Source: a virus. Taken from it: a stretch of 47,077 nt of DNA. The stretch lies in IMG/VR virus record IMGVR_UViG_3300048080_000070, positions 1 to 47,077 of that record, one strand, 5' to 3'. The position numbers and the translations under genes are program-made. Below are positions 17,118-42,322 of the stretch, one piece after another; within the stretch, counting starts at the first letter, position 1, and every line of letters begins with the position of its first letter. The notes beneath the pieces were generated by a model. The model was not told where the DNA came from and made no database searches. It saw only the letters and a program-made list of their open reading frames with translations.

Positions 17118-17960
17118 TTAGCCAATCGAAAGCCTCTGCTCGTCAGTCGTCTGCTTGCCAGCAATTTCCATCCCCCGCCGTGCCTTGTAATACTTCTCGA
17201 CCTGCATAAGCGGCAATTCCTTCATGTGGTCGAACCAGACGAGCGGGTGGACGGCCAGCGTGAAGCCTGCGCGGTTTGCCTCGACCCCGAAGTTGATGTC
17301 CTCGCCGGCACGCACCTTGCGGTCGTCAAGATAGGTGAAGTAGAACGGCGCAGAGCCGAGGCCGTGTGGCTTCGGAGCGAACACCCGGCGACGGATGGCG
17401 ATACAGCCCGTGCCTACAATGGGCACGCGGTATGGCTGCTTCACGGATTCGTCTGGAATGGGCAGGTTATAGCACTTGCTCTCGTCGTTCACGCCATAGT
17501 TGTTGACCCGGTACATTGATTCGGCGTCCATGTTGCCGACCCACACGGGCGTCAGGCCGCTCACGATGTCCGCGTTCGTCACCGTGCAGAGTTGCCAGAA
17601 GTTCTCCGGGACGATCTGATCGTCGTCGATCATCATGAGCCAGTCGGCGTCGGTCTCGGCCAGGAACGTGTTGACGATGCAGTTGCGGGCGTAGTCCGGG
17701 CCGCGTTTGCCAGCCTCGATATGGATGCCGAACCGGAACGGGCACTCGGGGAGGTGAGAGGACGCCATTGCGCGGGCAAACATGAGCGCGATGGAATAGT
17801 TCACCTTGCCACTCACAGTCGGAACCGCGATGAAGACGGACGGCTTCCGACCCGGCTGAATAGACTCCCGGCGCGACCGCTCCTGCGCGATGTTGACGAT
17901 TGGAGCGGGGGCGGACGAAGCGAACGAGCGCGTCCGCTGGTGTCTGTGGCGTACGCTCAT
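17118..17960 (-). CDS. GT-A fold (family-2-like) glycosyltransferase embedded in the structural operon
   Basis: Motifs: VFIAVPT...; a DxD-type motif (LMMIDDDQIV); GTGCIAIRRRVF; EDINFGVEANRAGF. The start at 17960 is ATGA-coupled to the upstream stop. Confidence 0.7.
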   Translation of the reverse strand: MSVRHRHQRTRSFASSAPAPIVNIAQERSRRESIQPGRKPSVFIAVPTVSGKVNYSIALMFARAMASSHLPECPFRFGIHIEAGKRGPDYARNCIVNTFLAETDADWLMMIDDDQIVPENFWQLCTVTNADIVSGLTPVWVGNMDAESMYRVNNYGVNDESKCYNLPIPDESVKQPYRVPIVGTGCIAIRRRVFAPKPHGLGSAPFYFTYLDDRKVRAGEDINFGVEANRAGFTLAVHPLVWFDHMKELPLMQVEKYYKARRGMEIAGKQTTDEQRLSIG

Positions 17961-18151
17961 TTGAATCCGACCCTCTCTCTGCGGCAAACACGAAACTTCT
18001 CGCCGTCCACCTCGACGAACAGTAGCGTCTCGTCGTTGTATTCTTGAATGGTTAGCGTCCGATCCTTCGGCGGATCATCTGGCCAGAGACGATGAACATG
18101 CTTACCGCTCCATCCATCATCCCACGTTGCTTTGACGTTACGGCTTCCCAC
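17957..18151 (-). CDS. Hypothetical small protein
   Basis: 64-aa ORF, coupled at both ends. Confidence 0.5.
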   Translation of the reverse strand: MGSRNVKATWDDGWSGKHVHRLWPDDPPKDRTLTIQEYNDETLLFVEVDGEKFRVCRRERVGFK

Positions 18152-20014: not shown

Positions 20015-20371
20015 TCAGAATTTCCTACCTGCTCCGCCACTACCGCCACGACGGTACTTGGTTGTAGCATCACGAACATCCGGCGGACCAATTACGCCAC
20101 GGAAAAGTCTGGCGTACTTTGGAATTGCCTCAACAGCCCTTGCCGCCAGCCGACCAGGTGAGTAAGGACTGGCCGCCATACTTGATCCACCACCGGATCG
20201 GCCACGCCTCGTCACCTCGATGATCTTCTCGCCCAACTTGTACCAATTAGTGTCCCGATAAGTGGCGAGATGTTTGCCCTCTCCACTTGCCTTGAGCGCC
20301 AAGTCGGTTGAACTTGGACTTCTTGCGGCCGGGTTGAACTTCCCTCTTCGTCCAGACAGATCATCTGCCAT
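20015..20371 (-). CDS. Hypothetical basic Gly-rich protein
   Basis: The internal ATG at 20371 is ATGA-coupled to the TerL stop. 118 aa. Confidence 0.45.
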   Translation of the reverse strand: MADDLSGRRGKFNPAARSPSSTDLALKASGEGKHLATYRDTNWYKLGEKIIEVTRRGRSGGGSSMAASPYSPGRLAARAVEAIPKYARLFRGVIGPPDVRDATTKYRRGGSGGAGRKF

Positions 20372-22152
20372 CAATGCACCATGACCGCCGGCAGCCCCGT
20401 GTACCTGGACACGAACTGTATCGGCGGACGCTCGTACTTCTCTTCGATCACCGGGATGGCGACCGGAACCCATCGGGACAGAACCTCATCGGCGTTCGCG
20501 TTCGCCATCATGTCGAGCGTGTCGCGCTTGACCGACGCGGGATACTCGTTCACCGTCGTTCTCAGAACAGAGAGTGCGGCCTTGTTGATCGTGCTCAGGT
20601 AGTACCAGTGGCCCATCTTGGCCTGGCCGGCCACGGTTGAAATGCGGTCGTTCTTGGCCCGCTTGCTCCACGACTTCGCGTCGATGAAGCGCGGCTGGTT
20701 CGTCGGGCGGGCCTCGCGTGGCGTGGACTTCCAGATCCGCTTCATGAACCCGACCATCGGCTTGTCGGCCTGCTGCTCGATGACGTAGAAGTGGGTGTGC
20801 CAGACGCGCATCATACGGAGGATTTCGTCGGCCCCTTCGTCGGACTCCATGTCGTTGCTGACGTTGAGGTCGAGGAGCACGTTGTCGATTTGACCAGCGA
20901 TTGAATATGAGTCAATGCAGCCGATGGCAGCATCAGCGCCCTCTTGGTGGTTGTCATCGCCTTTCCATGCCGGATCACAATACACGGCGCGAAACTTCGG
21001 GAGATTGCCGAACCGCTTGGCGAACTCTTCCGGGGTGAGCGGCTGGAAGAACTCCCACTGTAGGGCCTGCTCGCCGGTCAGGGTCGGGTCGAGTTGGTAC
21101 TGGAGATACCAGAATCGGTCGGTCCCGCGGCGGCGGATCTCGTTCGCCCGCTCCTTCGCCAACGCTTCAACGGATAGGCGCGGAATCGTCGGAAAGTTCG
21201 GCTTGTTGTCGTCGGTGAGCGCGGGCGTGCGGATGACGTAGTAGCGCGGGGTGCCGTCCTCATGCTTCTCCTCGATCATCGGCTTATAGAGGCTCTGGAT
21301 GTGGTAGGGCGTCCCCGCGACCCACTCGCGGGTCCAAGGCGGGGCGTTCAGCTGGCGCAACTGGTCGTAGCGGTCCTTCAAGTCCTCGCGGACGGATTCG
21401 GAATTGCGCGAGTCCTCCGCTTCCCAGTCGTCCAGCCCCTTGTAGTTGTAGCCCGATCCGGCTTTCCTGGATAGGGCGGCATCGGCATTCATGTTCTTCT
21501 CGTCGGCCATGAACTGGAGATCGCGGCACGGCCAGTTCCAGTGCCCCTTCTCGCCCCACTCGGCCAAGGGGATGGCGAAGTTGGCTGGCCCGCCTGTCAC
21601 GGTCTCGCAGCCGTCCCCGAAATGCTTGCGGATATATGGGTTGTGCCGGTTCATGTTCTTGATGGATTCGAGGGCGCCAGTGGCGCGGAACTCCAGGTTG
21701 TGCGAGTAGAGAAACAGGAGGTCGAGATCTTCGATGATCTTGTGCCGCTTCGGCAGCCAGTCGAAAGCCATCTTCAAGAAGAACGACTTGAGCCCCCGGC
21801 GCGGGTACTGGTGATGGATGCCGTCGTATTTGTCTAACTGGCCTGCCGCCATCAGCACAACGGTCTTTGCCACTTCGTCACGGTGCCGCGGCGGGTGCAG
21901 AAGCTTCCGGAACCGCGGCTGCTTGTACCAAGTCTGGAGCGCGTAGTGCCAGAACGGGTTATGCTCGACCGCAACGTCCGCCACGGGCCGGCCGACAATG
22001 TGCTGGAACACAATGCTATGGGGCTCCTTGCCGTACTTGGCGAGGAGTTCGGCCCCAAGCATGATGGAAAGGTCGCGCTCCACCGACACGGCGGCGGCGA
22101 GCAGCACGTTGGGGTCGATGTCAGGCGTTCTTGCGCTGGTCGTTTCCGTCAC
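20371..22152 (-). CDS. terL: Terminase large subunit
   Basis: 593 aa with a P-loop-like YPRRGLKS. The C-terminal half has RNaseH-like acidic motifs (AVYCDPAW and DTLDMMANA). It sits at the head of the structural operon. Confidence 0.7.
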   Translation of the reverse strand: MTETTSARTPDIDPNVLLAAAVSVERDLSIMLGAELLAKYGKEPHSIVFQHIVGRPVADVAVEHNPFWHYALQTWYKQPRFRKLLHPPRHRDEVAKTVVLMAAGQLDKYDGIHHQYPRRGLKSFFLKMAFDWLPKRHKIIEDLDLLFLYSHNLEFRATGALESIKNMNRHNPYIRKHFGDGCETVTGGPANFAIPLAEWGEKGHWNWPCRDLQFMADEKNMNADAALSRKAGSGYNYKGLDDWEAEDSRNSESVREDLKDRYDQLRQLNAPPWTREWVAGTPYHIQSLYKPMIEEKHEDGTPRYYVIRTPALTDDNKPNFPTIPRLSVEALAKERANEIRRRGTDRFWYLQYQLDPTLTGEQALQWEFFQPLTPEEFAKRFGNLPKFRAVYCDPAWKGDDNHQEGADAAIGCIDSYSIAGQIDNVLLDLNVSNDMESDEGADEILRMMRVWHTHFYVIEQQADKPMVGFMKRIWKSTPREARPTNQPRFIDAKSWSKRAKNDRISTVAGQAKMGHWYYLSTINKAALSVLRTTVNEYPASVKRDTLDMMANANADEVLSRWVPVAIPVIEEKYERPPIQFVSRYTGLPAVMVH

Positions 22153-22282: not shown

Positions 22283-23001
22283 CAATGCTCGGTTTCCTCC
22301 GTGGCGCTGCCGGGCGCGAGCGCAATGGCGTCCTGCGTGGCGAGAATGGACGCGGCTGCCTCTTCCATGATGGCCTCGCGGGCGCTGTCCTTCTGCTCGG
22401 ATGGCAGCCCGAAGCCCTTGACGGCCTGAGCCACCATGCGGAAGCATTGGCGGAAGGCCTGGGCGGTGATGGGCTCGCCCTGCCACGGCTGGCTGTCCAG
22501 GTGGGCGCGCATCTGGCCGGCGATGCCACGACGACCGAGCGCGAACAGGTCGTTGAGGGACGCGATGGCCTCGCGGGCCTCCTGGCGGACACCCTCGACG
22601 GCGGCCTTAGCCTCCTGTTTGAGGGCCTTGATGTCGAAGGTCAGCTTGGCCTGAGCCTGCTTGATCTCCTGTTCACGGCGGCCAGCATCGTTGAGGGCAG
22701 AGTTACAGGTGGCCTGCTTGCGCTTGTAGGCTTCCGTGGCACGCCGGAGATACTGGGCCCCGGCGTTGGTCTGTCGTGGCGGAATTGGGATAGAGGCAAG
22801 AAGTGATAGCTCCTGTCTGTACGAGGGTAGTGGGTAGGTTTTGCCGAAATCCTCGGCGCGGAAACCCTCGGGCAGCAGGAGCCATACCTTGCCAACGCGG
22901 GCGGACTCAACGTCCAGGCGCAGGGACTCTATGGTGTGGCGCGAGGGGCTTGGCTTTGGCGGCGCTTCCTCACCCATAGGCATTTTGTCACCCATGACCA
23001 T
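22282..23001 (-). CDS. First gene of the leftward operon, a coiled-coil protein (small terminase candidate by position only)
   Basis: I trimmed ORF 22282..23325 to the ATG cluster at 23001/22995/22983, because the upstream part overlaps the promoter region. Confidence 0.45.
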   Translation of the reverse strand: MVMGDKMPMGEEAPPKPSPSRHTIESLRLDVESARVGKVWLLLPEGFRAEDFGKTYPLPSYRQELSLLASIPIPPRQTNAGAQYLRRATEAYKRKQATCNSALNDAGRREQEIKQAQAKLTFDIKALKQEAKAAVEGVRQEAREAIASLNDLFALGRRGIAGQMRAHLDSQPWQGEPITAQAFRQCFRMVAQAVKGFGLPSEQKDSAREAIMEEAAASILATQDAIALAPGSATEETEH

Positions 23002-23032
23002 GCATACTACCACAAGCGCATAGTCACTGTGA

Positions 23033-23060
23033 AGTATAACGCATATCTGACATCTTGCAA
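23033..23060 (-). promoter_or_regulatory. Sigma70-like promoter for the leftward structural operon (TTGCAA-N16-TATACT)
   Basis: Read on the minus strand: -35 at 23060-23055 and -10 at 23038-23033. It lies in an AT-richer divergent intergenic region. Confidence 0.5.
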
Positions 23061-23071
23061 GTCGTATATGC
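23041..23071. promoter_or_regulatory. Imperfect 31-bp palindrome (GCATATCTGAC-N9-GTCGTATATGC), operator candidate
   Basis: The arms match at 9 of 11 positions. The palindrome is centred on the -35 of the leftward promoter and lies next to the HTH gene. Confidence 0.4.
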
Positions 23072-23089
23072 GAATGGTCAGTCGCTACC

Positions 23090-23118
23090 TTGACGTTCCG
23101 TTGCGAATGGCGTACACT
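23090..23118 (+). promoter_or_regulatory. Sigma70-like promoter for the rightward HTH and glycosylation operon (TTGACG-N17-TACACT)
   Basis: Hexamers and spacing were read directly from the sequence. It lies about 25 nt upstream of the GTG at 23144. Confidence 0.5.
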
Positions 23119-23143
23119 TGGTTGCGTGGGCGGAGAGTTGGAC

Positions 23144-23338
23144 GTGCTGGTGAGGCGGATCGAGGCGGCCAGGCTTGAGCGGTTGCTATCCAAGACCGCC
23201 CTTGCCGCGCTCGCCGGGGTCAGCCGACAGAGGGTAAGCGAGTTGCTGAATGGCCGGAACAGGTCGCTATCCACGCTGCGGGCGCTGAAATTCGTGCTGT
23301 GGCCACCGGAGGAATTGAAACCCAATGCCCCGCGTTGA
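23144..23338 (+). CDS. XRE/Cro-like helix-turn-helix transcriptional regulator
   Basis: RIEAARLERLLSKTALAALAGVSRQRVSELLNGRNRSLSTL fits an HTH_XRE pattern. A GTG start at 23144 is preferred over the ORF-track start at 23090. Confidence 0.6.
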   Translation: MLVRRIEAARLERLLSKTALAALAGVSRQRVSELLNGRNRSLSTLRALKFVLWPPEELKPNAPR

Positions 23339-24074
23339 GCGCAACGCCGAAGTCACGCTGGTCGTACTCGTCTACCGCTCTCTGCGGTGGCTTGACTGGT
23401 GCATGGAGGGGGTCGATTCAATTAGAACCGACACGCGGTATCGGTGGCTAGTCGTGGCGAACGACGCGACCGAGGAGGTTCGGGCCGACCCGCGCATCTC
23501 GGTGGACTTCCGCAACGATGACCCCGGCGAGTTCTACATCAATCGCGTGTATCGAGCCTGGAACGAGGGTGTCCTGAACGCGCCGACACCGTGGGTCGTA
23601 ATGCTCAACTCCGACATGTTTGGAAGCGACGGGTGGATCGACGAACTCATGGATGTGAAATGCAAGACGCCAAAACTCGTGCCGACTTCTCTGCTTATCG
23701 AGTCTGGCCGCCTGCCGTCTGGGATGCCAGAATACGTCAGGGATTTCGGCAAGAACCCCGACGAGTTCAAGGCAGATGAGTTCAAGGCTCACGCCGCGTC
23801 CATCGCCAAGCCTGCCATACGGCAGGAAGGGATGGGGGCGATGGGAGTCGGGACGCTTGTATTCCCGCAGACGGAACCAGGCCGCCTCTACATGCCCATC
23901 CTCGTAGACCGCCAGGAGTTCATGGACGTGGGCGGCTACCCGGAGGGCAATCCACCGGGCACGACCGGCGACAAGGATCTCGTCCGGCGGTATGCGGAGG
24001 CCGGATTCACACACGTCACGGCGCTGGGGAGCGTGGTCTATCATTGTCAAATCGGTGAGCAGACATGGCCCTGA
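23325..24074 (+). CDS. GT-A fold (family-2-like) glycosyltransferase
   Basis: Motifs: VTLVVLVYRS, VVANDAT, YRAWNEGV, VVMLNSDMF and DKDLVRRYAEAGF. Confidence 0.6.
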   Translation: MPRVERNAEVTLVVLVYRSLRWLDWCMEGVDSIRTDTRYRWLVVANDATEEVRADPRISVDFRNDDPGEFYINRVYRAWNEGVLNAPTPWVVMLNSDMFGSDGWIDELMDVKCKTPKLVPTSLLIESGRLPSGMPEYVRDFGKNPDEFKADEFKAHAASIAKPAIRQEGMGAMGVGTLVFPQTEPGRLYMPILVDRQEFMDVGGYPEGNPPGTTGDKDLVRRYAEAGFTHVTALGSVVYHCQIGEQTWP

Positions 24075-24667
24075 CGGACTGCGGCTTCGCCCACGACACG
24101 TCGATAGACTACGAGGCCATTGGCACAATTCTTGGTCACTGTGAGTCCTTGGCCTATGTTGGTGCCCTGTGCGCCTATGAGGCCGGCGTATTGGCGGATC
24201 GGTTGTCGTGCAAATACACAACCGTCATCGAGGCCAGTCCATACAACTTCTCCAGCGTTACATTGTCTGGGCCGTGTAGGCAGAAGAACTCCGTTGCACT
24301 ATGCGCGATCATCTCCGACACCAACGGACTTGGCAGGCTCTACATCACAGAGCATCCGTTTGCGTGCAGCGTTGTACCATTAAGCACCAATTCGGTGCGA
24401 GTCCCCATGCTGCGGCTGGACACCCTGTTGAAAGACCGCCCCCCGGAGTTCCTGGTCATCGATGCGGAGGGAGCGGCCTTGGCGGTTCTGCGCGGAGCGG
24501 CCGGGATAGCCAATAGTATCCGAGCCGTTCTGGTCGAGACCGAGGACGACGCCCACCGCATCGGCGATGTGCGCGATGATGTCTTTACCTATCTGAGGAA
24601 TGGCGGTTATGCTGTGCGGCACGATCCTGGCGGAAAACAAACAAACTCCCTGTGGGTTCGGCCCTGA
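24065..24667 (+). CDS. FkbM-family SAM-dependent methyltransferase
   Basis: EFLVIDAEGAALAVLRGAAGI...AVLVETE, plus an upstream YVGALCAYEAG motif, is typical of Methyltransf_21/FkbM. Confidence 0.6.
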   Translation: MALTDCGFAHDTSIDYEAIGTILGHCESLAYVGALCAYEAGVLADRLSCKYTTVIEASPYNFSSVTLSGPCRQKNSVALCAIISDTNGLGRLYITEHPFACSVVPLSTNSVRVPMLRLDTLLKDRPPEFLVIDAEGAALAVLRGAAGIANSIRAVLVETEDDAHRIGDVRDDVFTYLRNGGYAVRHDPGGKQTNSLWVRP

Positions 24668-25572
24668 TGGGCACGGTTATAGCCATGACCGTTCACGACC
24701 GCACCGACGAGGTCTTGGACGCCGTATTCGCGGGAATCAGCCTTCCAGGCAACAGACCCGACAGGATAGTGGTGTGCTTCGACCGGGCGCGCCAAGAGAC
24801 AATAGCCAAGACACAGAAGAATTGCCACACTCTCAATATCCCACTTGACTACACGGTCCTCGATGACCCGGCCATCGGGCCACGCTGCCCGTCAATGGCC
24901 TGGAACAGGGCGCTCGGTCTCGTCACGGAAGATTACGCCTTCTGCATTTCATCTGATGTTATTTTGGGGCCGCACAGCGTTGGAATGGCTTATCACCTCG
25001 TCAAGGAACGTCCGGAAAGCATCGTTTGCGGCAAGGCGGATCACTGTGGCAGTTCATACGTTTGGCAATGGCTTCTAGCCAACGGAGAAAAGGTAACACA
25101 CAGAACGATGACCTGCTCTATTGCGGGCAGACCGCTCGGCTTCGACTGGCTCCTTCCCATGAAACTTGTCCGAGAAATCGGAGGATATGACGAAGCCTTC
25201 ATGAACGGACTGTGCTATGAAGATGACGATTTCACAATTCGCATGTGGCGGGCGGGGGCCGACATCATCTTCTGTGACGATGTTTCCGGGATTCACTTGG
25301 AACACAAACGGGATCACCTGAAAGACGCCGACGGCAGGGTGGCCCATAACGAAAGGTTGTTTAAGGATCGCCACGGGGACATAAACTATCTCAGGGATGC
25401 CAAGTTCCAGAGATATATATGGAAAGATCCGAATGTGCCGGGGTTGAGCGTTTGGTTCCATGTTGAAGACCCAAACACCCCACAGAAGCTCGCCACTGCC
25501 CAGCAACTCTATGGGGTTGATCAGCCATGGAGGGCGATAATTCCCCACGATCCGGCGGAGATTAAGCCATGA
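24667..25572 (+). CDS. GT-A fold glycosyltransferase (paralog of 29141-29923)
   Basis: Motifs AWNRALGL...FCISSDVIL and GGYDEAFMNGLCYEDDDFTIRMWRAGADI. The ATG at 24667 overlaps the upstream TGA. Confidence 0.65.
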   Translation: MGTVIAMTVHDRTDEVLDAVFAGISLPGNRPDRIVVCFDRARQETIAKTQKNCHTLNIPLDYTVLDDPAIGPRCPSMAWNRALGLVTEDYAFCISSDVILGPHSVGMAYHLVKERPESIVCGKADHCGSSYVWQWLLANGEKVTHRTMTCSIAGRPLGFDWLLPMKLVREIGGYDEAFMNGLCYEDDDFTIRMWRAGADIIFCDDVSGIHLEHKRDHLKDADGRVAHNERLFKDRHGDINYLRDAKFQRYIWKDPNVPGLSVWFHVEDPNTPQKLATAQQLYGVDQPWRAIIPHDPAEIKP

Positions 25573-25742
25573 GCCGCGTAATGTTCTACTGTCCAGTCTG
25601 TGGGCGCACCATACTCCACACATACCCAAATTATTACGAGCCGAATACAATTTGCAACTGCGCTTTCCCTGTGCAAGTGACCGGGATGGTCAAAGTGCCA
25701 ATGTCAGACCCGGTGCCCTTGGGAAACCTGAAAATAACATGA
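25569..25742 (+). CDS. 57-aa Zn-ribbon mini-protein
   Basis: MSRVMFYCPVCGRT...ICNCAF. ATGA-coupled at both ends. Below the ORF-track cutoff. Confidence 0.5.
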   Translation: MSRVMFYCPVCGRTILHTYPNYYEPNTICNCAFPVQVTGMVKVPMSDPVPLGNLKIT

Positions 25743-26731
25743 GACGCCTCCTCGTGAACGATCAACTCTCCGCGCTGCCGGATCACCGGACGTTCTGGCA
25801 CGATCTGATGGAGTGGTTTGACATGGAATTCGCCGGAGCAGACTTCGGTGGACTTGTCAAAGAAGCCGATGAGCGTATCGATTTCTTCCTTCAAGACGGC
25901 TACGCTGGAGATGACATCCCTCGGTTGATTATCCGCAACGCAACGTGGTTCGGGCCGCTCAAGGCGAGCGCAACCGTCCCGACCATCTCGCTCTTGCAGG
26001 ACATTATCACCGAGGGGCCGCAGCGCCACATGCAGTTGGCTGTTATCGCTTCATCCAAAGCGACGGTGTTTAACTCCATCTTCACGGCCGACAAATACAT
26101 ACCACACCCGGAGGACGAGTCCACAACACTCGACATGCCACACAGAGTCATCCCGCTCCCCGTTGACTTCACCCTCTTCGAGCCAGGCAACGCGATGGGC
26201 CTGCAACAGTCGCTCTCGCTTCCCGACGGCTGCGTCTGCTGGATTGGAGCGTCGGTTGGGGCCGCCGGGGCCGTCAAGGGGTGGGACATCTTCGTGCGGA
26301 TTGCCAGGCTCAACCCGGACATTCCATTCGTGGGGGTGTTCAAGGATGCTGCGCCGGAGTACGGGCCGCCCAACCTGCGGACGTTCGTGAGGGCCACCCA
26401 CGAGGAGTTGGTCAAGGTCATCGGGGCTTGTCGCGTCGGACTCTGTACCTCACGCATGGAGTCGCAGCACCTCGCCGGCATCGAGATGGGGGCGTGTGGG
26501 CTCCCGATGGTCGCGCCGCCCGTGGGGTGCTATTGGAAGCGGGAGGACATGCCGGGCATTCTGGTTGGCGAGCCCACGCCGGAGTCCTATGCCACCGCAC
26601 TCCGGGCCATGCTCAAGCAGCCGGGCGACCCGCAGGCGATACGGGAGTATTGGCAACGGGAGTATGACAAGCCTGTTATAAGAGCGGCGTGGACGACACT
26701 TATCGAGGAGGTCGAGTGCTCTGGTCGATAA
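25739..26731 (+). CDS. GT-B fold (group-1/GT4-like) glycosyltransferase
   Basis: KGWDIFVRIA and ESQHLAGIEMGACGLPMVAP form an EX7E-type motif. I used the internal ATG at 25739 of ORF 25652..26731. Confidence 0.65.
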   Translation: MRRLLVNDQLSALPDHRTFWHDLMEWFDMEFAGADFGGLVKEADERIDFFLQDGYAGDDIPRLIIRNATWFGPLKASATVPTISLLQDIITEGPQRHMQLAVIASSKATVFNSIFTADKYIPHPEDESTTLDMPHRVIPLPVDFTLFEPGNAMGLQQSLSLPDGCVCWIGASVGAAGAVKGWDIFVRIARLNPDIPFVGVFKDAAPEYGPPNLRTFVRATHEELVKVIGACRVGLCTSRMESQHLAGIEMGACGLPMVAPPVGCYWKREDMPGILVGEPTPESYATALRAMLKQPGDPQAIREYWQREYDKPVIRAAWTTLIEEVECSGR

Positions 26732-27342
26732 TGATCGCCGCGATTCCAGAGAGGTTTCATTCCGTCCAGCCACTACTCTATTCGCTCTTGGAGGCGCAGT
26801 CCGTGGCGCGGATGCCAGACGTTGAACTGCTCTACTTCATGGATAGCCGCAAGCGGCCGGTTGGGGCGAAGCGGAACGATCTGCTGGCGATGGCCCGTGG
26901 CGAGTACGTCTCGTTCATCGACGACGACGACGAGGTGGCGAGCGACTATGTGCGCCGCATCCACGACACCATCGTATCGGCCAGGAAGTCCGATCCGCGG
27001 GCCGACGTGATCTGCTTCCCGCAGCGGGCCACGCTCAAGCCCCACGGCGTCACGCACGAATGTACCTACTCGCTGGCGCATTGGCGGGACCGGAAGCCGG
27101 AGGAGCGACGGCAACTCGCGCATGGCTCGGACGCCAATACGCTGCTGTGGAGCGGCCCGCCGGCCCACACGATGGCATGGAGACGCGAGACTATCGGTGA
27201 CACGCGGTTCCCCAACAAGACCTTCGGCGAGGATGTGGATTGGGTGAACGCGGTATGCGCCAAGGCCACGACGGAGATTGTGCTGACAGGCGCGCCGCTA
27301 TACTTCTACAAGTTCGATGAAGAGAGGACGGCGACACGATGA
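26731..27342 (+). CDS. GT-A fold glycosyltransferase
   Basis: MIAAIPERF..., GEYVSFIDDDDEV (DxD motif) and GEDVDW. The start overlaps the upstream stop (TAATG). Confidence 0.65.
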   Translation: MIAAIPERFHSVQPLLYSLLEAQSVARMPDVELLYFMDSRKRPVGAKRNDLLAMARGEYVSFIDDDDEVASDYVRRIHDTIVSARKSDPRADVICFPQRATLKPHGVTHECTYSLAHWRDRKPEERRQLAHGSDANTLLWSGPPAHTMAWRRETIGDTRFPNKTFGEDVDWVNAVCAKATTEIVLTGAPLYFYKFDEERTATR

Positions 27343-27542
27343 AACCAAAGTATTGTTCCATGTGCGGCCACGAAACGGTCTTACAACCGAGCGGAACGTT
27401 CAATTCTCAAACCGGCGAACCGGACAGCTGGGCGTATTGTAATAACCCGGGCTGTGAAGCGTTTAGAGCATCGCGGTCTGCAAATAGCGTGTTCGGGGCG
27501 GTGGGCGATTTCTTTCGTTCATTCAGGACGCCGATGCGATGA
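27339..27542 (+). CDS. 67-aa Zn-ribbon mini-protein
   Basis: CSMCG...CNNPGC. ATGA-coupled at both ends. Confidence 0.55.
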   Translation: MKPKYCSMCGHETVLQPSGTFNSQTGEPDSWAYCNNPGCEAFRASRSANSVFGAVGDFFRSFRTPMR

Positions 27543-28660
27543 GTCAGTCCGGTATCTACTCAGAATCCAAGATGATTTGGTGGTTTGCCCGCGACCGTGG
27601 GTTGCCAGCGGCCCCAAAACAGGTACAGCTGATTTTATCCGATCTGTGCAATCAGGACTGCCACTTCTGCGCCTACCGCATGAGCGGCTACACGTCGAAT
27701 GAGTTGTTTGTGGGCGACTCGAAGCAGGCCGCCTACGGCCACAGCAATCCCGTCCGGTGGATACCGACGGAGCGGGCTCTGAAACTAGTGGACGAAATCA
27801 AGGAGGTCGGGGCGCTCTCGATACAATTCACAGGCGGCGGCGAGCCAACCGTGCATCCAGAGTGCGATAAGATATTCTCACGCGCCTTGGAGCACGGGCT
27901 GAGGTGTGCCCTGGTAAGCAACGGCGTGAAGTGGAGTGCGGACCTTATCAAGAACCTGTTGCCACGCTTCGATTGGGTTAGGGTGTCGGTGGATGCCGGC
28001 GATGCGGCTTCGTATTCCCGCATCCGCCGCACACCAACGGCACATTGGGGCCGCGTGTGGGCTAATATCAAGGGTCTGGCCGAAGCTATTCGGTTGGGCG
28101 AAACGCACACCAACCTCGGCATTGGATTCGTCGTCACGCCGGACTCCTACCGCGAGATACCAGAGTTTGCCGCGGTCGCTGCGAAGAGCGGAGCGCACAA
28201 CATCCGCTTCTCCGCCATGTTCAGCCCGGAGGACGAGAAGCCGTTCGTGGGCATCTATGACATGGTGCGCGTATTCATCGACAAGGCGCGCCGGGTCCAT
28301 GAGACTGACACGTTCAAGGTCCACGACAACTTCGGGTCCAGGTTCGACGACCTGCGCCAGCACGCGCCGGACTACTCGTTCTGTTCGTACCAGCACTATA
28401 CGGCCTATGTCGGGGGCGACATGAACGCCTACCGCTGCTGCGTTCTGGCCTACAACAAGCGCGGGCTGGTGGAGGGCGGGAACCTCAAGGAGCGGTCGTT
28501 CACGGAGTTCTGGAGGTCGCCGGAGCGTCTGGCCGACATGAACGCGCTTGACGCCAAGGGATGCGAGCGGTGCCAGTTTAACGTGAAAAATCGGCAGATG
28601 CTCTACGTCATGGGGAATACCGAGTCGGATACCACATCGAGGCACATCGAATGGCCGTAG
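27539..28660 (+). CDS. Radical SAM enzyme with a C-terminal Cys cluster (SPASM/twitch-like?)
   Basis: Contains CNQDCHFC (CxxxCxxC), GGGEP, and C-terminal FCSYQ...RCCVLAYN...GCERCQFN. Confidence 0.75.
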   Translation: MSQSGIYSESKMIWWFARDRGLPAAPKQVQLILSDLCNQDCHFCAYRMSGYTSNELFVGDSKQAAYGHSNPVRWIPTERALKLVDEIKEVGALSIQFTGGGEPTVHPECDKIFSRALEHGLRCALVSNGVKWSADLIKNLLPRFDWVRVSVDAGDAASYSRIRRTPTAHWGRVWANIKGLAEAIRLGETHTNLGIGFVVTPDSYREIPEFAAVAAKSGAHNIRFSAMFSPEDEKPFVGIYDMVRVFIDKARRVHETDTFKVHDNFGSRFDDLRQHAPDYSFCSYQHYTAYVGGDMNAYRCCVLAYNKRGLVEGGNLKERSFTEFWRSPERLADMNALDAKGCERCQFNVKNRQMLYVMGNTESDTTSRHIEWP

Positions 28661-28821
28661 AGAAGCGCAGAAAACTCTATTCGGTGGTCGTTCCATACGA
28701 CTGCACGCAACAAATAATTCTCGAAGCGTTCGAGGCTAACAGAAAATTCAGAGCAGAGTACGCAAGGACGCGCCGAGCCAACAGGAGGAACTATCGAGTC
28801 AAGCCAAGGAAACCGCAATGA
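28651..28821 (+). CDS. 56-aa strongly basic protein
   Basis: MAVEKRRKLYSVVVPYDCTQQ...RRANRRNYRVKPRKPQ. It overlaps both neighbours and is below the ORF-track cutoff. Confidence 0.35.
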   Translation: MAVEKRRKLYSVVVPYDCTQQIILEAFEANRKFRAEYARTRRANRRNYRVKPRKPQ

Positions 28822-29138
28822 AGCCTCGGATCGTCAAGGTCAAACGGAGTTGGCTTAGCCGGGTTTGGTGGACAACACGCCACGAGTATTTCTGTCTGCT
28901 GCGGCACGTTGGACTGCGCGACCGCCTTCGCTGTCCGTATTGCCACAAGGTCGGCACATGGAAACCACACAAGCAGCCGCGGAGGTGGCTGTGTAAGTGG
29001 TGTGGGGTCTATGGTGACATCGGAAGGTGGGGGCCGGCTTGGCCGTGTGGCAAGAAGAAAGTGTGGATGCTCAAGCCGATCAAGAAACTGAAGTTGCCGA
29101 GCGAAAGAGTGGTCAACGTCAATCCGTGGAGGGGATAG
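28818..29138 (+). CDS. 106-aa basic Zn-ribbon protein
   Basis: CPYCHKVG...CKWCG, loosely reminiscent of transposase-type N-terminal Zn-ribbons. Confidence 0.5.
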   Translation: MKPRIVKVKRSWLSRVWWTTRHEYFCLLRHVGLRDRLRCPYCHKVGTWKPHKQPRRWLCKWCGVYGDIGRWGPAWPCGKKKVWMLKPIKKLKLPSERVVNVNPWRG

Positions 29139-29140
29139 AC

Positions 29141-29923
29141 ATGAGGCTCTCCGCTTGCATCACCATCAACGCCCGCTCCGCGACCGACCTGGAGTTGGTG
29201 TTTGACTCCATGCGCGACCAGGCCCACGACGAGTTCATCATCGTGCTTGATGCTCCAACGCCGGACATCGCCCACTACTGCCGGACCTATTGGGAGGACG
29301 ACCAGCGCACCGTGTTCATGCCCATCGACCGCCCACCCGGCTGGCGCTCACCGGTCAAGGCGTGGAATGTAGGTTACAGCCGCGTCACCGGCGACCTGCT
29401 CTACTGCTTCTCCAGCGAGACCGTCCAGCAGCCCGGCAACGTCGCCAAGGCCAAGGCCATGCTGGAACAGGAGCCCGCTGTCATCTTCGGCAAGGCGGAG
29501 TGCTCATGCGGGCCGGACGGGCAGGAGGTCTATTGGGGCGGCACGGCCCCTGGCAACCTGCTCTCCAACGCCGCCCACCCCCGCCCCCTTGGCTTCATCT
29601 GGGCCGCGCCCATGCCCAACGTCCGCAAGATGGGCGGTTGGGACGAAACCTTCGACCGCGGCCTCTGGTTCGATGAATCCGACTTCTTCTACCGCCTCTG
29701 GCGTACCGGCCTCAACTTCGTGTTCGATGACGCAATCGCCGGCACCCACCTCCACCATGCCAGACCAGGCCTCGAAACCCCAGAAGGCAAGGCCGCCATC
29801 CAGACAAACCTAGCCTACATAACCGCCAAGCTCGGCTCCACCAACCCCATCGCTGACCTCCCCAAAATCATCTCGGCCAACCCAACCCATCCCGGCCGTA
29901 CCGTCTGGAAACACCTCGCCTGA
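29141..29923 (+). CDS. GT-A fold glycosyltransferase (paralog of 24667-25572)
   Basis: AWNVGYSRV...CFSSETV and GGWDETFDRGLWFDESDFFYRLWRTGLNF. GGAGGGGA lies upstream of the ATG at 29141. Confidence 0.65.
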   Translation: MRLSACITINARSATDLELVFDSMRDQAHDEFIIVLDAPTPDIAHYCRTYWEDDQRTVFMPIDRPPGWRSPVKAWNVGYSRVTGDLLYCFSSETVQQPGNVAKAKAMLEQEPAVIFGKAECSCGPDGQEVYWGGTAPGNLLSNAAHPRPLGFIWAAPMPNVRKMGGWDETFDRGLWFDESDFFYRLWRTGLNFVFDDAIAGTHLHHARPGLETPEGKAAIQTNLAYITAKLGSTNPIADLPKIISANPTHPGRTVWKHLA

Positions 29924-30196
29924 AAATTCTGCGGAAAATGGCGGAGGGAACACTTCGATTTCGCCACCGCCAAGAACCGGCACCCCCCCACGGGTACCCC
30001 TACCTATGCCTATCCACACCCATACCTATGCGTCCTGGCTCATAACACATAGGCCACTCGCTCAGACGCCGTAAGTCTAGTGCTGTCAGCGACCTGGGCC
30101 TGCTGGGGGCAGGTCCACATAACATGAGTTATCGGACGTAGCGCAGACCCCTAGTGCCGCAAGGCCTACACAGACCCATGATCATTCCGGGCCGCC

Positions 30197-39985: not shown

Positions 39986-40522
39986 ATGACCGAACCGGCA
40001 CAACTGAGTGAGACGCCACCATTCGAGTTCGGCCAAAGACTTCTTCTTGTTGAGGCACACTCGCACAAGCAAATAGAGGTTCCGTGCCCACTGTGCTTTG
40101 GCAAGTTGTTCGTGACGATCATCTTAGGAAACAACGAGCAGCAGAAGGTTGAGTGTGATGCGTGTGGAAGGGGGTATGAGGGGCCAACCGGCAGGACGCA
40201 CGAATACACTCCATATTCCGCGGTGCTTCCTGTTACTGTTACGGGGATGGTGCGCTACTACGAGGATTGGCATATTGGGGTTGGTTCTCACTCGGTTCGG
40301 CTATCGGATCGCCGGTTATTCACCAATGCCGAAGAGGCAGAGGCCCGACGTGCCGAATTGCACACGGTAGCCGAGCACAACGCCAAGATGTCATTCGAGT
40401 CCCAATTCAGGGGCAGAAAAAAGGACGCGACATGGATGGCTGCATACCACCGCAAGTGTCTGGCAGATCTACAACGACAAGTCAAATGGCACGAAGCGAA
40501 GTTGTGTAAGGAGCCAAGATGA
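39986..40522 (+). CDS. Zn-ribbon-containing hypothetical protein
   Basis: GGAGGA upstream of the ATG at 39986. Contains CPLCFG...CDACG. Confidence 0.6.
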   Translation: MTEPAQLSETPPFEFGQRLLLVEAHSHKQIEVPCPLCFGKLFVTIILGNNEQQKVECDACGRGYEGPTGRTHEYTPYSAVLPVTVTGMVRYYEDWHIGVGSHSVRLSDRRLFTNAEEAEARRAELHTVAEHNAKMSFESQFRGRKKDATWMAAYHRKCLADLQRQVKWHEAKLCKEPR

Positions 40523-41346
40523 CCGAACCGGCACCGCAGGCACAACCCGACGCAAGCCCACCTACCCCGATAGCCGCGATAACGCGGAAAGTGGCGCTGC
40601 ATGGTTCGTTTGCCACGCAGAAAACCCTCCAGATCGCCCACCTCATAGACCGCTTCGGTGCTGATTCGGTCGTCGTGATTTCCGGCGAGAAGGGCCTGGG
40701 GACCATCGAGAGCAAGATGGCCACAGTGCCAGCAGCCAACATCATTCCGGTGGCGACATTCGATGAGTTCCGGGCCGCCATCAAGACAGTCGTAGACCAC
40801 CACAACACGCCCGACAAGTGGGTCTGCATCGACGGAGCCACGCGCATCCTCAAGTGGGAGATCAACCGCTACATTACTGAGGTGGACCGCATCCACGACA
40901 TCGTTGCCCGCGGAGAGACCGTCCACAAAGACGATGTCATCTACAAGCGTTTCATCAGCAAGGAAAAGAATATCGACACGGTGAAGATTTATGGCCACTT
41001 CGGGATCATCTGCGAGCGGCTGTGGTCGATGATCGTCAACATGGGGTGCAACTTCTACGTCAACTTCCTAAGTGACGAGACGAAGAACGATGACCGCACC
41101 AAAAAGCCGCCGTTTGGACCAGATGTGCCGGGCAACATGGGTCTCAAGGCGGTCATGTCGTCATTCGATTTCACGCTGGCGCTTTACTACGATGCAGCAC
41201 ACCAACTCATCGCACGCACTCAGCCGTCTGGCATGTATTTGGCCAGGACACGGGAGGACCGGGCGGCGGGGATTGTCATACCGGAGGAGATTGTCGGGTT
41301 CGATTTGGCTGAGTTCGTTGACCTGATCAACGGAGGGCGGAAATGA
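40519..41346 (+). CDS. Sak4/AAA_24-like recombination-associated ATPase homolog with a deviant Walker A
   Basis: HGSFATQKT sits where GxxxxGKT is expected. WVCIDGATRI is Walker-B-like. Size and context fit Sak4-type proteins. Confidence 0.4.
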   Translation: MTEPAPQAQPDASPPTPIAAITRKVALHGSFATQKTLQIAHLIDRFGADSVVVISGEKGLGTIESKMATVPAANIIPVATFDEFRAAIKTVVDHHNTPDKWVCIDGATRILKWEINRYITEVDRIHDIVARGETVHKDDVIYKRFISKEKNIDTVKIYGHFGIICERLWSMIVNMGCNFYVNFLSDETKNDDRTKKPPFGPDVPGNMGLKAVMSSFDFTLALYYDAAHQLIARTQPSGMYLARTREDRAAGIVIPEEIVGFDLAEFVDLINGGRK

Positions 41347-41525
41347 TCTCTAGGGTAATAGCCAGTCTTGCGCTTCTCGCAACTGCCATCTGCCTTTCCA
41401 TCCTTGTCATGATCAATGGATGGGGCCTAACGCCGCGCTCGTGGTGGTGGATCATTGGCGCGGGGTTGTGCATCCAAGTGATCATTCACGCCCTAGTGGA
41501 TATGGTCAAGAAGGAGGGCAAATGA
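41343..41525 (+). CDS. Two-TM small membrane protein
   Basis: 60 aa, ATGA-coupled, with two hydrophobic helices. Confidence 0.55.
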   Translation: MISRVIASLALLATAICLSILVMINGWGLTPRSWWWIIGAGLCIQVIIHALVDMVKKEGK

Positions 41526-41674
41526 CCGAATCCGCACACTGCTGCTGGTGCTGGTACGACGCGCATCCGGCTAATATGGTCTGGTGCCACGGGGTAGACG
41601 AGGAGACGCTGTGTCGGGAACACATGGAGGAGGCGGGGGACATCGTGGGGGAAGCCGTGGGAGGGACTGCATGA
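41522..41674 (+). CDS. 50-aa Cys-rich protein
   Basis: ATGA-coupled. MTESAHCCWCWYDAHPANMVWCHG... Confidence 0.45.
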   Translation: MTESAHCCWCWYDAHPANMVWCHGVDEETLCREHMEEAGDIVGEAVGGTA

Positions 41675-41847
41675 ACGTTGTGGCGATAAGCGCCATCGTG
41701 TACGCCCGCTGCCTCATCATGGCGCTGGCCGCGATGGACGCCAGCATGGAGGAGCGCGGCGCAATTATTCGGCAGATACGGGAGATGCTTGAGAAGTTGG
41801 ACTCAACGCTCGAGGGTAACTTGGAGGATGGGGTGCATGTCCACTGA
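41671..41847 (+). CDS. Hypothetical 58-aa protein
   Basis: ATGA-coupled internal ATG of ORF 41584..41847. Confidence 0.45.
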   Translation: MNVVAISAIVYARCLIMALAAMDASMEERGAIIRQIREMLEKLDSTLEGNLEDGVHVH

Positions 41848-42322
41848 ACTGAACATCGATGAAGTCAACCGGATTCTGGCGGATCTTGACCGGGACGACC
41901 GCGAGGGGACGCACGTTGCGGAGGTTGCAGAAGTAAGCAAGGGCACTTGGGCACCCGAATACGGTGGCGGGGGGTACACAAGTGTTGACCTGCTACTCAC
42001 GACAGCCCGCGGGGTGAAATTTAACACGCGCTTCAATGACGACATACCAACATTAGCAGAGTACGAGGCACAGAAGGGCACCATGGGCCTTGGGAAGATG
42101 AAGGGGCTCGGCAATTCACTCCGATGTAGGATGAATCTACTCTCAATGTATCAAGTAGCCGACCCGGCCAAGCTGACCCGCGGGTTCAAGCTCGGTGTGG
42201 TCATCGTGAAGGACAAACAGGGGTTCCCGCGGCTGGCGAACGTGGTGCCTCTGGCCGATGCCGTCGCCAAGCACGCCGGCGGGGCGGTGGCGGCGCAGGG
42301 CAAGGATGACATACCGTTCTGA
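41837..42322 (+). CDS. Single-stranded DNA-binding protein-like (C-terminal DDIPF tail)
   Basis: It ends in ...AAQGKDDIPF, the canonical SSB protein-interaction tail. The N-terminal domain is not obviously a classical OB SSB. Confidence 0.5.
   Translation: MSTELNIDEVNRILADLDRDDREGTHVAEVAEVSKGTWAPEYGGGGYTSVDLLLTTARGVKFNTRFNDDIPTLAEYEAQKGTMGLGKMKGLGNSLRCRMNLLSMYQVADPAKLTRGFKLGVVIVKDKQGFPRLANVVPLADAVAKHAGGAVAAQGKDDIPF

Follow-up and report, generated by a model that had tools for sequence, protein, structure and literature searches.

A radical SAM gene with a predicted twitch-type C terminus

The window analyzed here is the whole of IMG/VR record IMGVR_UViG_3300048080_000070, a 47-kb phage genome (47,077 nucleotides; guanine-plus-cytosine (G+C) content ∼61%), and our subject is a gene in it predicted to encode a 373-aa radical S-adenosylmethionine (SAM) enzyme. 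The gene is one of four tightly packed plus-strand open reading frames (ORFs) at 27339-29138, of 67, 373, 56, and 106 aa, which form part of a cassette at 23325-29923. The plus strand opens with this cassette, which adjoins a minus-strand block carrying the terminase and capsid genes. A sequence-only reading of the locus had proposed that the enzyme carries an SPASM or twitch domain at its C terminus and either modifies a sugar or acts on its small neighbors, as in the pathways for peptides that are made by the ribosome and then modified after translation (RiPPs). The four ORFs, their overlaps, and the motifs quoted in that reading are all present at these coordinates; in the 373-aa protein, the motifs read C37-NQD-C41-HF-C44, G99-GGEP103, F-C282-SYQ, R-C300-C301-VLAYN, and G-C342-ER-C345-QFN. 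The features of the gene are as follows.

27539..28660, plus strand: predicted 373-aa radical SAM enzyme with a C-terminal twitch-type domain (from Pfam, homologs, and an AlphaFold2 (AF2) model)
27647..27670, plus strand: codons for C37-x3-C41-x2-C44, the putative ligands of the SAM-binding [4Fe-4S] cluster (from conservation in homologs)
27830..27847, plus strand: codons for T98-GGGEP103, the putative GGE SAM-binding motif (from conservation in homologs)
28382..28573, plus strand: predicted twitch-type region C282-C345, with C282, C300, C301, C342, and C345 (from a Pfam SPASM match to residues 282-345)

The Pfam Radical_SAM model (PF04055) matched the 373-aa protein with an E-value of 9.5e-19 and 68.6 bits against a cutoff of 29.5, which places it in the superfamily, and both motifs required for SAM cleavage, CX3CX2C and GGE, are present. 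Conservation was followed in 26 homologs (53-75% identity) and, for the family figures, in 93 representatives of clusters built at 50% identity, the most distant at ∼30% identity. The GGE motif is invariant in both sets, and all eight Cys are invariant in the 26 homologs. Among the 93 representatives, conservation is 99% for the CX3CX2C motif, 100% for C282, C300, C342, and C345, and 98% for C301. The sequence-only reading had allowed that the C-terminal Cys might not be kept in homologs; at 98 to 100% conservation, they are.

SPASM domains contain seven to eight conserved Cys, including a CX2CX5CX3C motif, and bind two [4Fe-4S] clusters, and twitch domains, which share their C-terminal placement, contain three to four conserved Cys and bind one cluster (PMC9477430). 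Here, the C-terminal region contains only five conserved Cys, not seven, and no further Cys beyond C342-x2-C345 was found in the 26 homologs or the 93 representatives. We therefore rejected a full SPASM domain and assign the region as twitch-type, predicted to bind one auxiliary cluster with one Cys to spare; of the two domain types originally suggested, twitch stood and SPASM did not. The marginal Pfam SPASM score (23.5 bits, barely over the 21.5-bit cutoff) is as expected of a truncated version of that domain. In the AF2 model (predicted local distance difference test (pLDDT) 84.7; predicted template modeling score (pTM) 0.87), the barrel is followed by beta-hairpin strands at 288-291 and 296-298, by helices at 321-325 and 328-336, and by a helix at 349-358 just past C345. 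The model thus predicts a beta-hairpin and helices directly after a partial TIM barrel, the arrangement that defines a twitch domain, and a second Fe-S cluster would be bound in this region.

The source gene call (P0001, 326 aa) starts at M48 and drops the CX3CX2C motif, affecting 27539-27679. Because the full length (100%) of the long form is covered in alignments with homologs of 372-373 aa, we take the 373-aa form to be correct. The 106-aa ORF is overlapped by the source call for the downstream glycosyltransferase (GT), P0271 (294 aa). An automated annotation would therefore miss the cluster motif as well as the small 106-aa gene on this contig.

Size and distribution of the family

A large protein database yielded 1,272 scored homologs of the 373-aa protein, many of them on 40-50-kb contigs, and an exhaustive search of 50%-identity representatives gave 207 at E ≤ 1e-30 and 1,353 at E ≤ 1e-10. 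IMG/VR contained 148 relatives on contigs of 7-223 kb, compared with only a dozen or so among the genomes of 185,579 bacterial and archaeal species (one genome each), all of them on metagenome-assembled genome or short draft contigs; by these counts, its members are essentially viral. Against 50,697 phage records, tblastn returned only four matches, at ∼24% identity, and our literature search found no paper on this family or on inteins in phage radical SAM genes. The family thus appears to be a large, uncharacterized, and almost exclusively viral group of predicted twitch-type radical SAM enzymes. In one member, P0211 (531 aa), a class-I SAM methyltransferase domain (residues ∼20-150) is naturally fused to the radical SAM/twitch enzyme, an arrangement that ties the enzyme functionally to the methyltransferases of the cassettes described below.

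Many homologs are 480-967 aa long owing to inteins, with Hint and intein-splicing domains and often a LAGLIDADG homing endonuclease. These occupy one or both of two sites, one inside CX3CX2C (query residue ∼41) and the other just before GGGEP (residue ∼96-97). Intein-bearing members include P0120, P0123, P0125, P0130, P0143, P0148, P0159, P0175, P0196, P0214, and P0254; the copy in the window has no equivalent insertion.

The radical SAM gene is embedded among glycan-related genes

All ORFs of 84 related loci were clustered, and distances to the radical SAM gene were counted in 76 loci. A GT2-like family (cluster 1), to which two paralogs in the window belong (24652-25572 and 29141-29923), was present in 60 of the 84 loci; in 30 of 76 loci, a member lay no more than 100 bp from the radical SAM gene, and in 47 of 76 no more than 1.5 kb away. 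We refer to the second paralog, which follows the four packed ORFs, as the partner GT.

29141..29923, plus strand: GT2-like glycosyltransferase with a predicted GT-A fold, the conserved partner (from membership in cluster 1 and the fold)

The partner GT, which has 130 homologs and an AF2 model with a pLDDT of 94, most likely begins at the ATG at 29141, 2 nt past the stop codon of the 106-aa ORF; the ORF finder starts it at a GTG at 29027. Other recurrent clusters comprised GT1, GT2, four methyltransferase families, and a nucleoside diphosphate (NDP)-sugar 4,6-dehydratase/epimerase. Among the 120 nearest neighbors, drawn from 61 non-redundant loci, 34 matched Pfam GT2 models and others matched DXD sugar-binding GTs, capsule synthesis proteins, GT8, and methyltransferases; the next shell of 150 ORFs added Epimerase/GDP_Man_Dehyd proteins, RmlD-type reductases, and DegT aminotransferases. 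A GT, methyltransferase, or NDP-sugar gene lay within 3 kb in 59 of 62 non-redundant loci. Glycan-related genes made up 44% of ORFs within 1.5 kb as against 7.7% at 5-8 kb (odds ratio 9.4, p 4e-19), a contrast that is somewhat inflated by the gene clusters having been defined on the same loci. Only in some phages do the NDP-sugar 4,6-dehydratases, reductases, and aminotransferases occur near the radical SAM gene. In L010-L019, the radical SAM and GT2 genes sit between the structural genes and the terminase gene. The enzyme is thus found among sugar-nucleotide and glycosyl-transfer genes, the neighbors that mark a sugar-modifying context.

Nearest characterized enzymes

The best sequence match in the Protein Data Bank was BlsE (E 1.4e-10, residues 83-227), five orders of magnitude ahead of the next, with PqqE and DesII behind. 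DesII (E 1.5e-16; query TM score (TMq) 0.62) and BlsE (E 2.6e-15) were also the best fold matches, followed by SuiB, SkfB, PqqE, CteB, anSME, viperins, MoaA, and BtrN; a viral structure library contained no fold match closer than TMq 0.56. What the closest enzymes have in common is hydrogen abstraction from a sugar ring carried on a nucleotide or nucleobase.

DesII, the thymidine diphosphate (TDP)-4-amino-4,6-dideoxy-D-glucose deaminase/dehydrogenase of the desosamine pathway, acts on a nucleotide sugar, one of the two kinds of substrate proposed below for the phage enzyme, and its core is likewise followed by a C-terminal beta-hairpin and helices (PMC11434129). In some phage loci, moreover, the enzyme has a 4,6-dehydratase and a DegT aminotransferase as neighbors, which parallels the logic of DesIV and DesI. 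The differences are nevertheless considerable: identity is ∼18%, the DesII model TIGR04426 scored 24 bits against a cutoff of 450, and the source of DesII is an antibiotic pathway, not a phage. The N-terminal domain of DesII has six helices, and the enzyme binds just one cluster (PMC11434129), whereas the phage family has four or five conserved C-terminal Cys and almost no N-terminal domain. We also considered the invariant R148 and S150 as diphosphate binders, and dropped this assignment because they are equivalent to the SAM ribose motif of DesII (PMC11434129). BlsE, the cytosylglucuronate decarboxylase of the blasticidin S pathway, resembles the proposed activity in abstracting a hydrogen from a pyranose on a nucleobase (PMC3715490). 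Its likeness to the phage enzyme is, however, limited to the core barrel, with the Cys-rich C-terminal domain unaligned, and its model (TIGR04466) scored 42 bits against a cutoff of 400.

As mechanistic models, we turned to BtrN, HygY, and NeoN, the twitch radical SAM sugar dehydrogenases and epimerases of aminoglycoside pathways. These enzymes carry one auxiliary cluster in a truncated SPASM domain, act on carbohydrate substrates, and catalyze either an oxidation or a Cys-mediated epimerization. The ligand spacing of BtrN, which we take to be C169, C188, and C232-x2-C235, resembles that of C282, C300, and C342-x2-C345 here. BtrN is nonetheless a weak fold match (rank 42, TMq 0.38) and gave no sequence match.

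Resemblance to viperins, which act on nucleotides, raises the question of whether the target could be a nucleotide or DNA, with the enzyme acting in a viperin-like manner or in DNA hypermodification and the GTs glycosylating the modified bases. Phages do glycosylate DNA, and the core matches prokaryotic viperin models at ∼58-61 bits (NF038283, 57.8 bits against a cutoff of 180; PADLOC pVip, 60.6 bits). Both matches cover the core only (residues 31-206 for NF038283), and the phage enzyme has the twitch Cys cluster, absent from viperins, in place of the viperin C-terminal extension. Among the larger ORFs of the window, we found no thymidylate-synthase-like hydroxymethylase and no gene for base modification or nucleotide metabolism, and a set of five to six GT-A/GT-B enzymes with an FkbM methyltransferase fits an oligosaccharide better; we consider a nucleotide or DNA target very unlikely. 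The defense assignment returned by PADLOC was rejected, the similarity to viperin being at the level of the core.

We give almost no credence to a role as an auxiliary metabolic gene of a cofactor pathway (AhbD, MoaA, or a tungsten-cofactor maturase). Pointing in that direction are partial, weak matches (W_rSAM_matur, 59 bits; AhbD, 44 bits; MoaA, 32-37 bits) and the frequency with which viral radical SAM genes are labeled ahbD (PMC13452462). These scores, however, are 5- to 10-fold under curated cutoffs of 284-500 bits (for AhbD, TIGR04545, 44 against 500), and the context is one of glycosylation, not of tetrapyrrole or molybdopterin genes. AhbD, going by the title of a reference cited in PMC13452462, has two auxiliary clusters, as opposed to the one predicted for the phage family. 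Separately, members of this family may be among the viral genes mislabeled ahbD. PHROGs labels for the enzyme are the generic "radical SAM" only.

A proposed role in modifying the sugar of a phage-made glycan

The features predicted for the protein are those of a radical SAM enzyme with two clusters, and genes for apparently soluble glycosyl- and methyl-transfer enzymes surround its own. We propose that it is an enzyme of phage glycosylation cassettes which most likely modifies a sugar of a phage-made glycan, with virion proteins as the likeliest acceptor, and we put the probability of this reading at roughly 0.55. The sugar-modifying half of the earlier proposal is supported by the gene context, by the nearest homologs, and by the methyltransferase fusion; a robust grouping with a known sugar subfamily was not obtained, every NCBIfam score being far below cutoff.

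In the proposed mechanism, the 5'-deoxyadenosyl radical would take a hydrogen off a carbon of the sugar, which could be either a nucleotide sugar or one that has just been transferred. Two outcomes can be envisaged, for which BtrN oxidation and HygY/NeoN epimerization are the precedents. The auxiliary [4Fe-4S] cluster could accept an electron to give a keto sugar, as in BtrN, or the spare C301 could donate a hydrogen to the opposite face to give an epimer, as in HygY and NeoN. Either way, the product would be a sugar not supplied by the host, which the adjacent GT2 would install and the methyltransferases would decorate as part of the glycan. The three small flanking ORFs would have no part in this mechanism.

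Several observations weigh against this proposal or limit it, in addition to the inflated enrichment contrast given above. BlsE, to our knowledge, has no auxiliary cluster. DesII has none either (PMC11434129), and the analogy with these two enzymes is confined to the core domain. None of the 35 NCBIfam matches reached its cutoff, the best being N_Twi_rSAM at 70 bits against 170; since all curated scores fall far below cutoff, the enzyme lies outside every characterized sugar subfamily and would represent a separate, uncharacterized one. The peptide-modifying enzymes SuiB, SkfB, PqqE, CteB, and anSME match the fold nearly as well (TMq 0.52-0.59, compared with 0.59-0.63 for DesII and BlsE), and three of the 62 non-redundant loci have no recognizable glycan gene nearby. 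The fold predicted for the partner GT is a generic GT-A fold, matching WrtF, K4CP, RmlT, and ppGalNAc-T2 about equally, and it does not distinguish a protein acceptor from a glycan or another type. The partner GT, the only GT so compared, had no tblastn match at E 1e-3 among the 50,697 phage records, which include phages proven to glycosylate their virions. Finally, the 106-aa gene adjoins the radical SAM gene in three phages of the clade and might conceivably have an accessory role there.

The peptide-modifying fold matches bear on a further explanation, in which the substrate is protein: the enzyme would alter a residue of a virion protein by oxidation, epimerization, or cross-linking, either tuning a glycosylation site or acting independently of the GTs. 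Most characterized SPASM/twitch enzymes act on peptides or proteins, with SuiB, SkfB, CteB, and anSME among the good fold matches, and the smallest module to be conserved consists of just this gene and a single GT2 next to structural genes. Set against this are a sequence that is clearly closest to BlsE, which acts on a nucleoside-linked sugar, the co-occurrence with NDP-sugar dehydratases, reductases, and aminotransferases, the fusion of one member to a small-molecule-type methyltransferase, and a protein with no peptide-recognition domain. On balance, we judge a protein substrate unlikely.

As to what the modified sugar would be attached to, the cassette enzymes offer some guidance. No hydrophobic or transmembrane segment was found in any cassette protein, and no flippase, polymerase, or priming transferase in the window's cassette. 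Because all cassette enzymes are thus predicted to be soluble, with no lipid-carrier machinery, and because the module abuts or lies within packaging and structural genes, we favor a virion protein as the acceptor. Two proteins offer candidate O-glycosylation acceptors and may be weak hints toward a virion target. The major head protein of the window (12568-13671, minus strand) has an S/T-rich loop (residues 138-165, with 12 Ser/Thr in 25 residues), and in the L010-L019 group, a structural protein two genes from the radical SAM gene (L012:1656-2594) ends in a long Ser/Pro-rich tail.

The same sugar chemistry could instead serve a host envelope polysaccharide (lipopolysaccharide, O-antigen, capsule, or S-layer glycan), for example, against superinfection. 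Genes for GTs and NDP-sugar enzymes in phages are commonly interpreted as modifying the host surface (PMC13452462, PMC12801897), three of the partner GT's fold matches (WrtF, K4CP, and RmlT) act on glycans or teichoic acid, and the Caps_synth and Gly_transf_sug families are among the neighbors. Conversely, neither the cassette nor the most frequent neighbor families include a membrane-spanning protein, flippase, polymerase, or priming transferase, and in several phages the radical SAM and GT genes sit together inside structural or packaging modules. Classic seroconversion is a temperate trait, and no integrase turned up in ∼40 scanned window proteins, although no search was aimed at integrases. 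These points are not decisive, since a phage could use the lipid-carrier machinery of its host; we regard a host-envelope target as fairly unlikely.

A virion target for the glycan has a precedent in mycobacteriophages. According to the accounts in PMC4351075 and PMC11600133 (the latter citing Freeman 2023), a cassette of an O-methyltransferase and GTs in Corndog and Che8, placed among the virion genes in Corndog, modifies the capsid and tail tube. That cassette, with one O-methyltransferase and two to three GTs, resembles the present one in placing soluble GTs and a methyltransferase beside or within virion genes. It differs in that its description in PMC4351075 mentions no radical SAM enzyme; moreover, the partner GT has no tblastn match in cultured phages, and virion glycosylation here is a prediction from genes.

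If the proposal is correct, the system would be a variation on what is already known, namely, twitch radical SAM enzymes that modify sugars on the one hand and glycosylation cassettes of phages on the other. More tentatively, and as a possibility only, this may be the first recognized radical SAM enzyme dedicated to viral glycosylation: a phage-specific twitch enzyme making a non-host sugar, from either a common nucleotide sugar of the host or a sugar just transferred, by a chemistry undescribed for its scaffold, the sugar being built into a methylated glycan coat on virion proteins. The family is widespread among environmental phages, and its conservation is sufficient for inteins to have colonized both SAM-binding motifs. 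Phage-encoded virion glycosylation was shown recently, in a few mycobacteriophages only, where it alters antibody recognition and the enzymes are ordinary transferases and methyltransferases. A radical SAM enzyme found consistently in such cassettes across hundreds of environmental phages would imply that phages make unusual sugars by radical chemistry. Viral radical SAM genes, a poorly understood pool often reported as cofactor auxiliary metabolic genes, would gain a new functional class, enzymology a small, soluble twitch enzyme whose genetic partner is defined, and phage biology a marker gene for glycan-decorated virions. The family is noteworthy mainly for being large, nearly phage-specific, and wholly uncharacterized.

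Small ORFs flanking the radical SAM gene

The three small ORFs beside the enzyme gene bear on the RiPP-like role suggested in the sequence-only reading. Developed in full, such a role would have the enzyme modify or cross-link a flanking small Cys-rich or basic peptide and the GTs decorate the product, as in glycocins or mycofactocin.

27339..27542, plus strand: 67-aa CxxC...CxxxxC Zn-ribbon ORF, probably an incidental filler gene (sub-threshold Phage_zn_bind and Lar matches only)
28651..28821, plus strand: 56-aa basic ORF, net charge +11, probably incidental and of uncertain coding status (G+C content at third codon positions (GC3) 0.58)
28818..29138, plus strand: 106-aa CxxC...CxxC Zn-ribbon protein, net charge +23 (219 homologs)

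These ORFs are indeed packed tightly against the enzyme gene. The 67-aa ORF meets the radical SAM gene, and the 56-aa ORF the 106-aa ORF, in ATGA overlaps (4 nt each), and the radical SAM gene overlaps the 56-aa ORF by 10 nt. The strongly basic character noted for the 56-aa product is borne out by its charge and extends to the 106-aa product. Their codon usage sets two of them apart: GC3 is 0.57 for the 67-aa ORF, 0.58 for the 56-aa ORF, and 0.72 for the 106-aa ORF, compared with 0.74-0.84 in most cassette genes, so that codon bias is weak in the first two. Scans of Pfam, NCBIfam, and PHROGs gave no family match for the 56-aa ORF.

The small ORFs do not travel with the enzyme. By tblastn, the three peptides had no match at E < 0.1 in 83, and later 104, related loci, and no homolog of the 67-aa or 56-aa ORF was present in 109 related loci. 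The closest relatives (L001-L003, L102, and L103) have small ORFs beside the enzyme which are unrelated to those of the window and to each other, and in L003 and L104, GT2, radical SAM, and GT genes follow one another with no small ORF between. The slots between cassette genes hold different small genes in each phage, including HNH endonucleases, which is ordinary phage mosaicism.

The 106-aa ORF has a different history. It belongs to a family of very basic Zn-ribbon phage proteins of ∼100-125 aa with the motif RDRLRCPxC...RRWLCKxCG. Homologs lie directly downstream of the radical SAM gene in L105 (2711-2995) and directly upstream in L106 (10001-10342), whereas a profile search found no member of the family in the 104 loci fetched through the radical SAM gene. 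Three further homologs occur in phages without the enzyme (L107:10001-10315, L108:8001-8309, and L109:8001-8336), next to a UDP-GlcNAc 2-epimerase gene, in a GT-methyltransferase cassette without radical SAM, and among replication genes, respectively. The six contexts therefore comprise three radical SAM-bearing glycosylation cassettes, one cassette without the enzyme, one UDP-GlcNAc 2-epimerase setting, and one set of replication genes, and the 106-aa ORF appears to be a real, roaming small phage gene, a facultative and not an obligate neighbor of the enzyme.

Some features remain in favor of a RiPP-like role: the tight packing, the recurrence of the 106-aa homolog beside the radical SAM gene in L105 and L106, and the similarity to RiPP maturases (SuiB, SkfB, CteB, PqqE, and MftC), which share a radical SAM core with a Cys-rich C-terminal domain and are among the good fold matches. 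Mycofactocin loci, too, combine radical SAM and GT2 genes, and the mycofactocin maturase model aligns over the C-terminal region of the phage enzyme, yet with 39 bits against a cutoff of 265. Every maturase model in NCBIfam was in fact far under cutoff (StsB, MftC, PqqE, ScmE/F, and GeoRSP, 23-42 bits against 265-625). In the AF2 model, ∼30 residues with one short helix precede the first barrel strand, so that a RiPP recognition element (RRE) is absent from the enzyme, and no PqqD, RRE, peptidase, or ABC transporter was among the most frequent families in the two surveys of neighbors (270 ORFs). The window's own cassette likewise contained no PqqD or RRE family. The phage enzyme also differs from the maturases in having no conserved precursor beside it and five C-terminal Cys instead of seven. 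Because a lack of conservation of the small ORFs next to the enzyme had been named beforehand among the grounds for rejection, and they are not conserved there, we regard the RiPP reading as refuted, or at best highly improbable. The caveat attached to that reading, that small Zn-ribbon ORFs may stand here incidentally, proved right. In phage genomes, small Cys-rich ORFs packed against a radical SAM gene are thus insufficient grounds for a RiPP call.

A further small ORF of this kind, a 57-aa Zn-ribbon ORF (CxxC...CxC; GC3 0.60), lies at 25569-25742 between a GT2-like gene and the GT1 gene and has no homolog in the related loci, which supports the view that such ORFs are scattered over the genome.

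Layout of the cassette and the window

The cassette at 23325-29923 runs in the order GT-A-like, FkbM methyltransferase, GT2-like, GT1, GT2, radical SAM gene with the small ORFs, and GT2-like partner, and is followed on the plus strand by recombination and replication genes. Its remaining genes, and the genes of the minus-strand block referred to above, are the following.

23325..24074, plus strand: putative GT-A-like protein, first in the cassette and divergent from the terminase side (weak Glycos_transf_2 match)
24065..24667, plus strand: predicted FkbM-family SAM methyltransferase (Pfam Methyltransf_21, E 7.8e-9; TIGR01444; PHROG methyltransferase)
24652..25572, plus strand: second GT2-like glycosyltransferase, cluster-1 paralog of 29141-29923 (Pfam Glyco_tranf_2_3 and Glyco_transf_7C, below cutoff)
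25652..26731, plus strand: predicted GT1 (GT-B type) glycosyltransferase (Pfam Glyco_trans_1_4; orthologs in relatives)
26689..27342, plus strand: predicted GT2 glycosyltransferase directly upstream of the radical SAM region (Pfam Glycos_transf_2; PHROG glycosyltransferase, E 1.8e-22)
20371-22152, minus strand: large terminase gene (minus-strand block)
12568-13671, minus strand: major head (capsid) protein gene (minus-strand block)
17118..17987, minus strand: additional putative GT-A-like gene, within the structural module and apart from the main cassette (PHROG glycosyltransferase, E 4.8e-4; Pfam Glyco_tranf_2_3, E 6.6e-4)

Orthologs of the GT2 at 26689-27342, 55-69% identical, lie upstream of the radical SAM gene in L001-L003, L005, L006, L044, L105, and L106; judging from these, this gene keeps its position throughout the window's phage clade. 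The GT-A-like protein at 23325-24074 has orthologs (55-77% identical) at the head of relatives' cassettes, and the L104 ortholog weakly matches PF00535. Megablast of 23000-30000 against the 50,697 phage records gave no match, and no cultured phage was similar at the DNA level.

There is no intergenic space between the two divergent genes at 23325, so the start codon of at least one of them is probably mis-assigned. Several relatives have a small HTH_3 (Cro/CI-type) gene at the cassette head (L002:1711-1908, L003:3074-3301, L102:913-1140, L103:888-1049, and L106:6622-6801), which the window lacks. The G+C content falls to 0.558 at 24001-26000, compared with ∼0.61 elsewhere; this dip spans the FkbM methyltransferase and the first GT2-like gene (GC3 0.69 and 0.64) and suggests that these two were acquired later than the rest of the cassette. 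A further dip, to 0.568, lies at 40001-42000.

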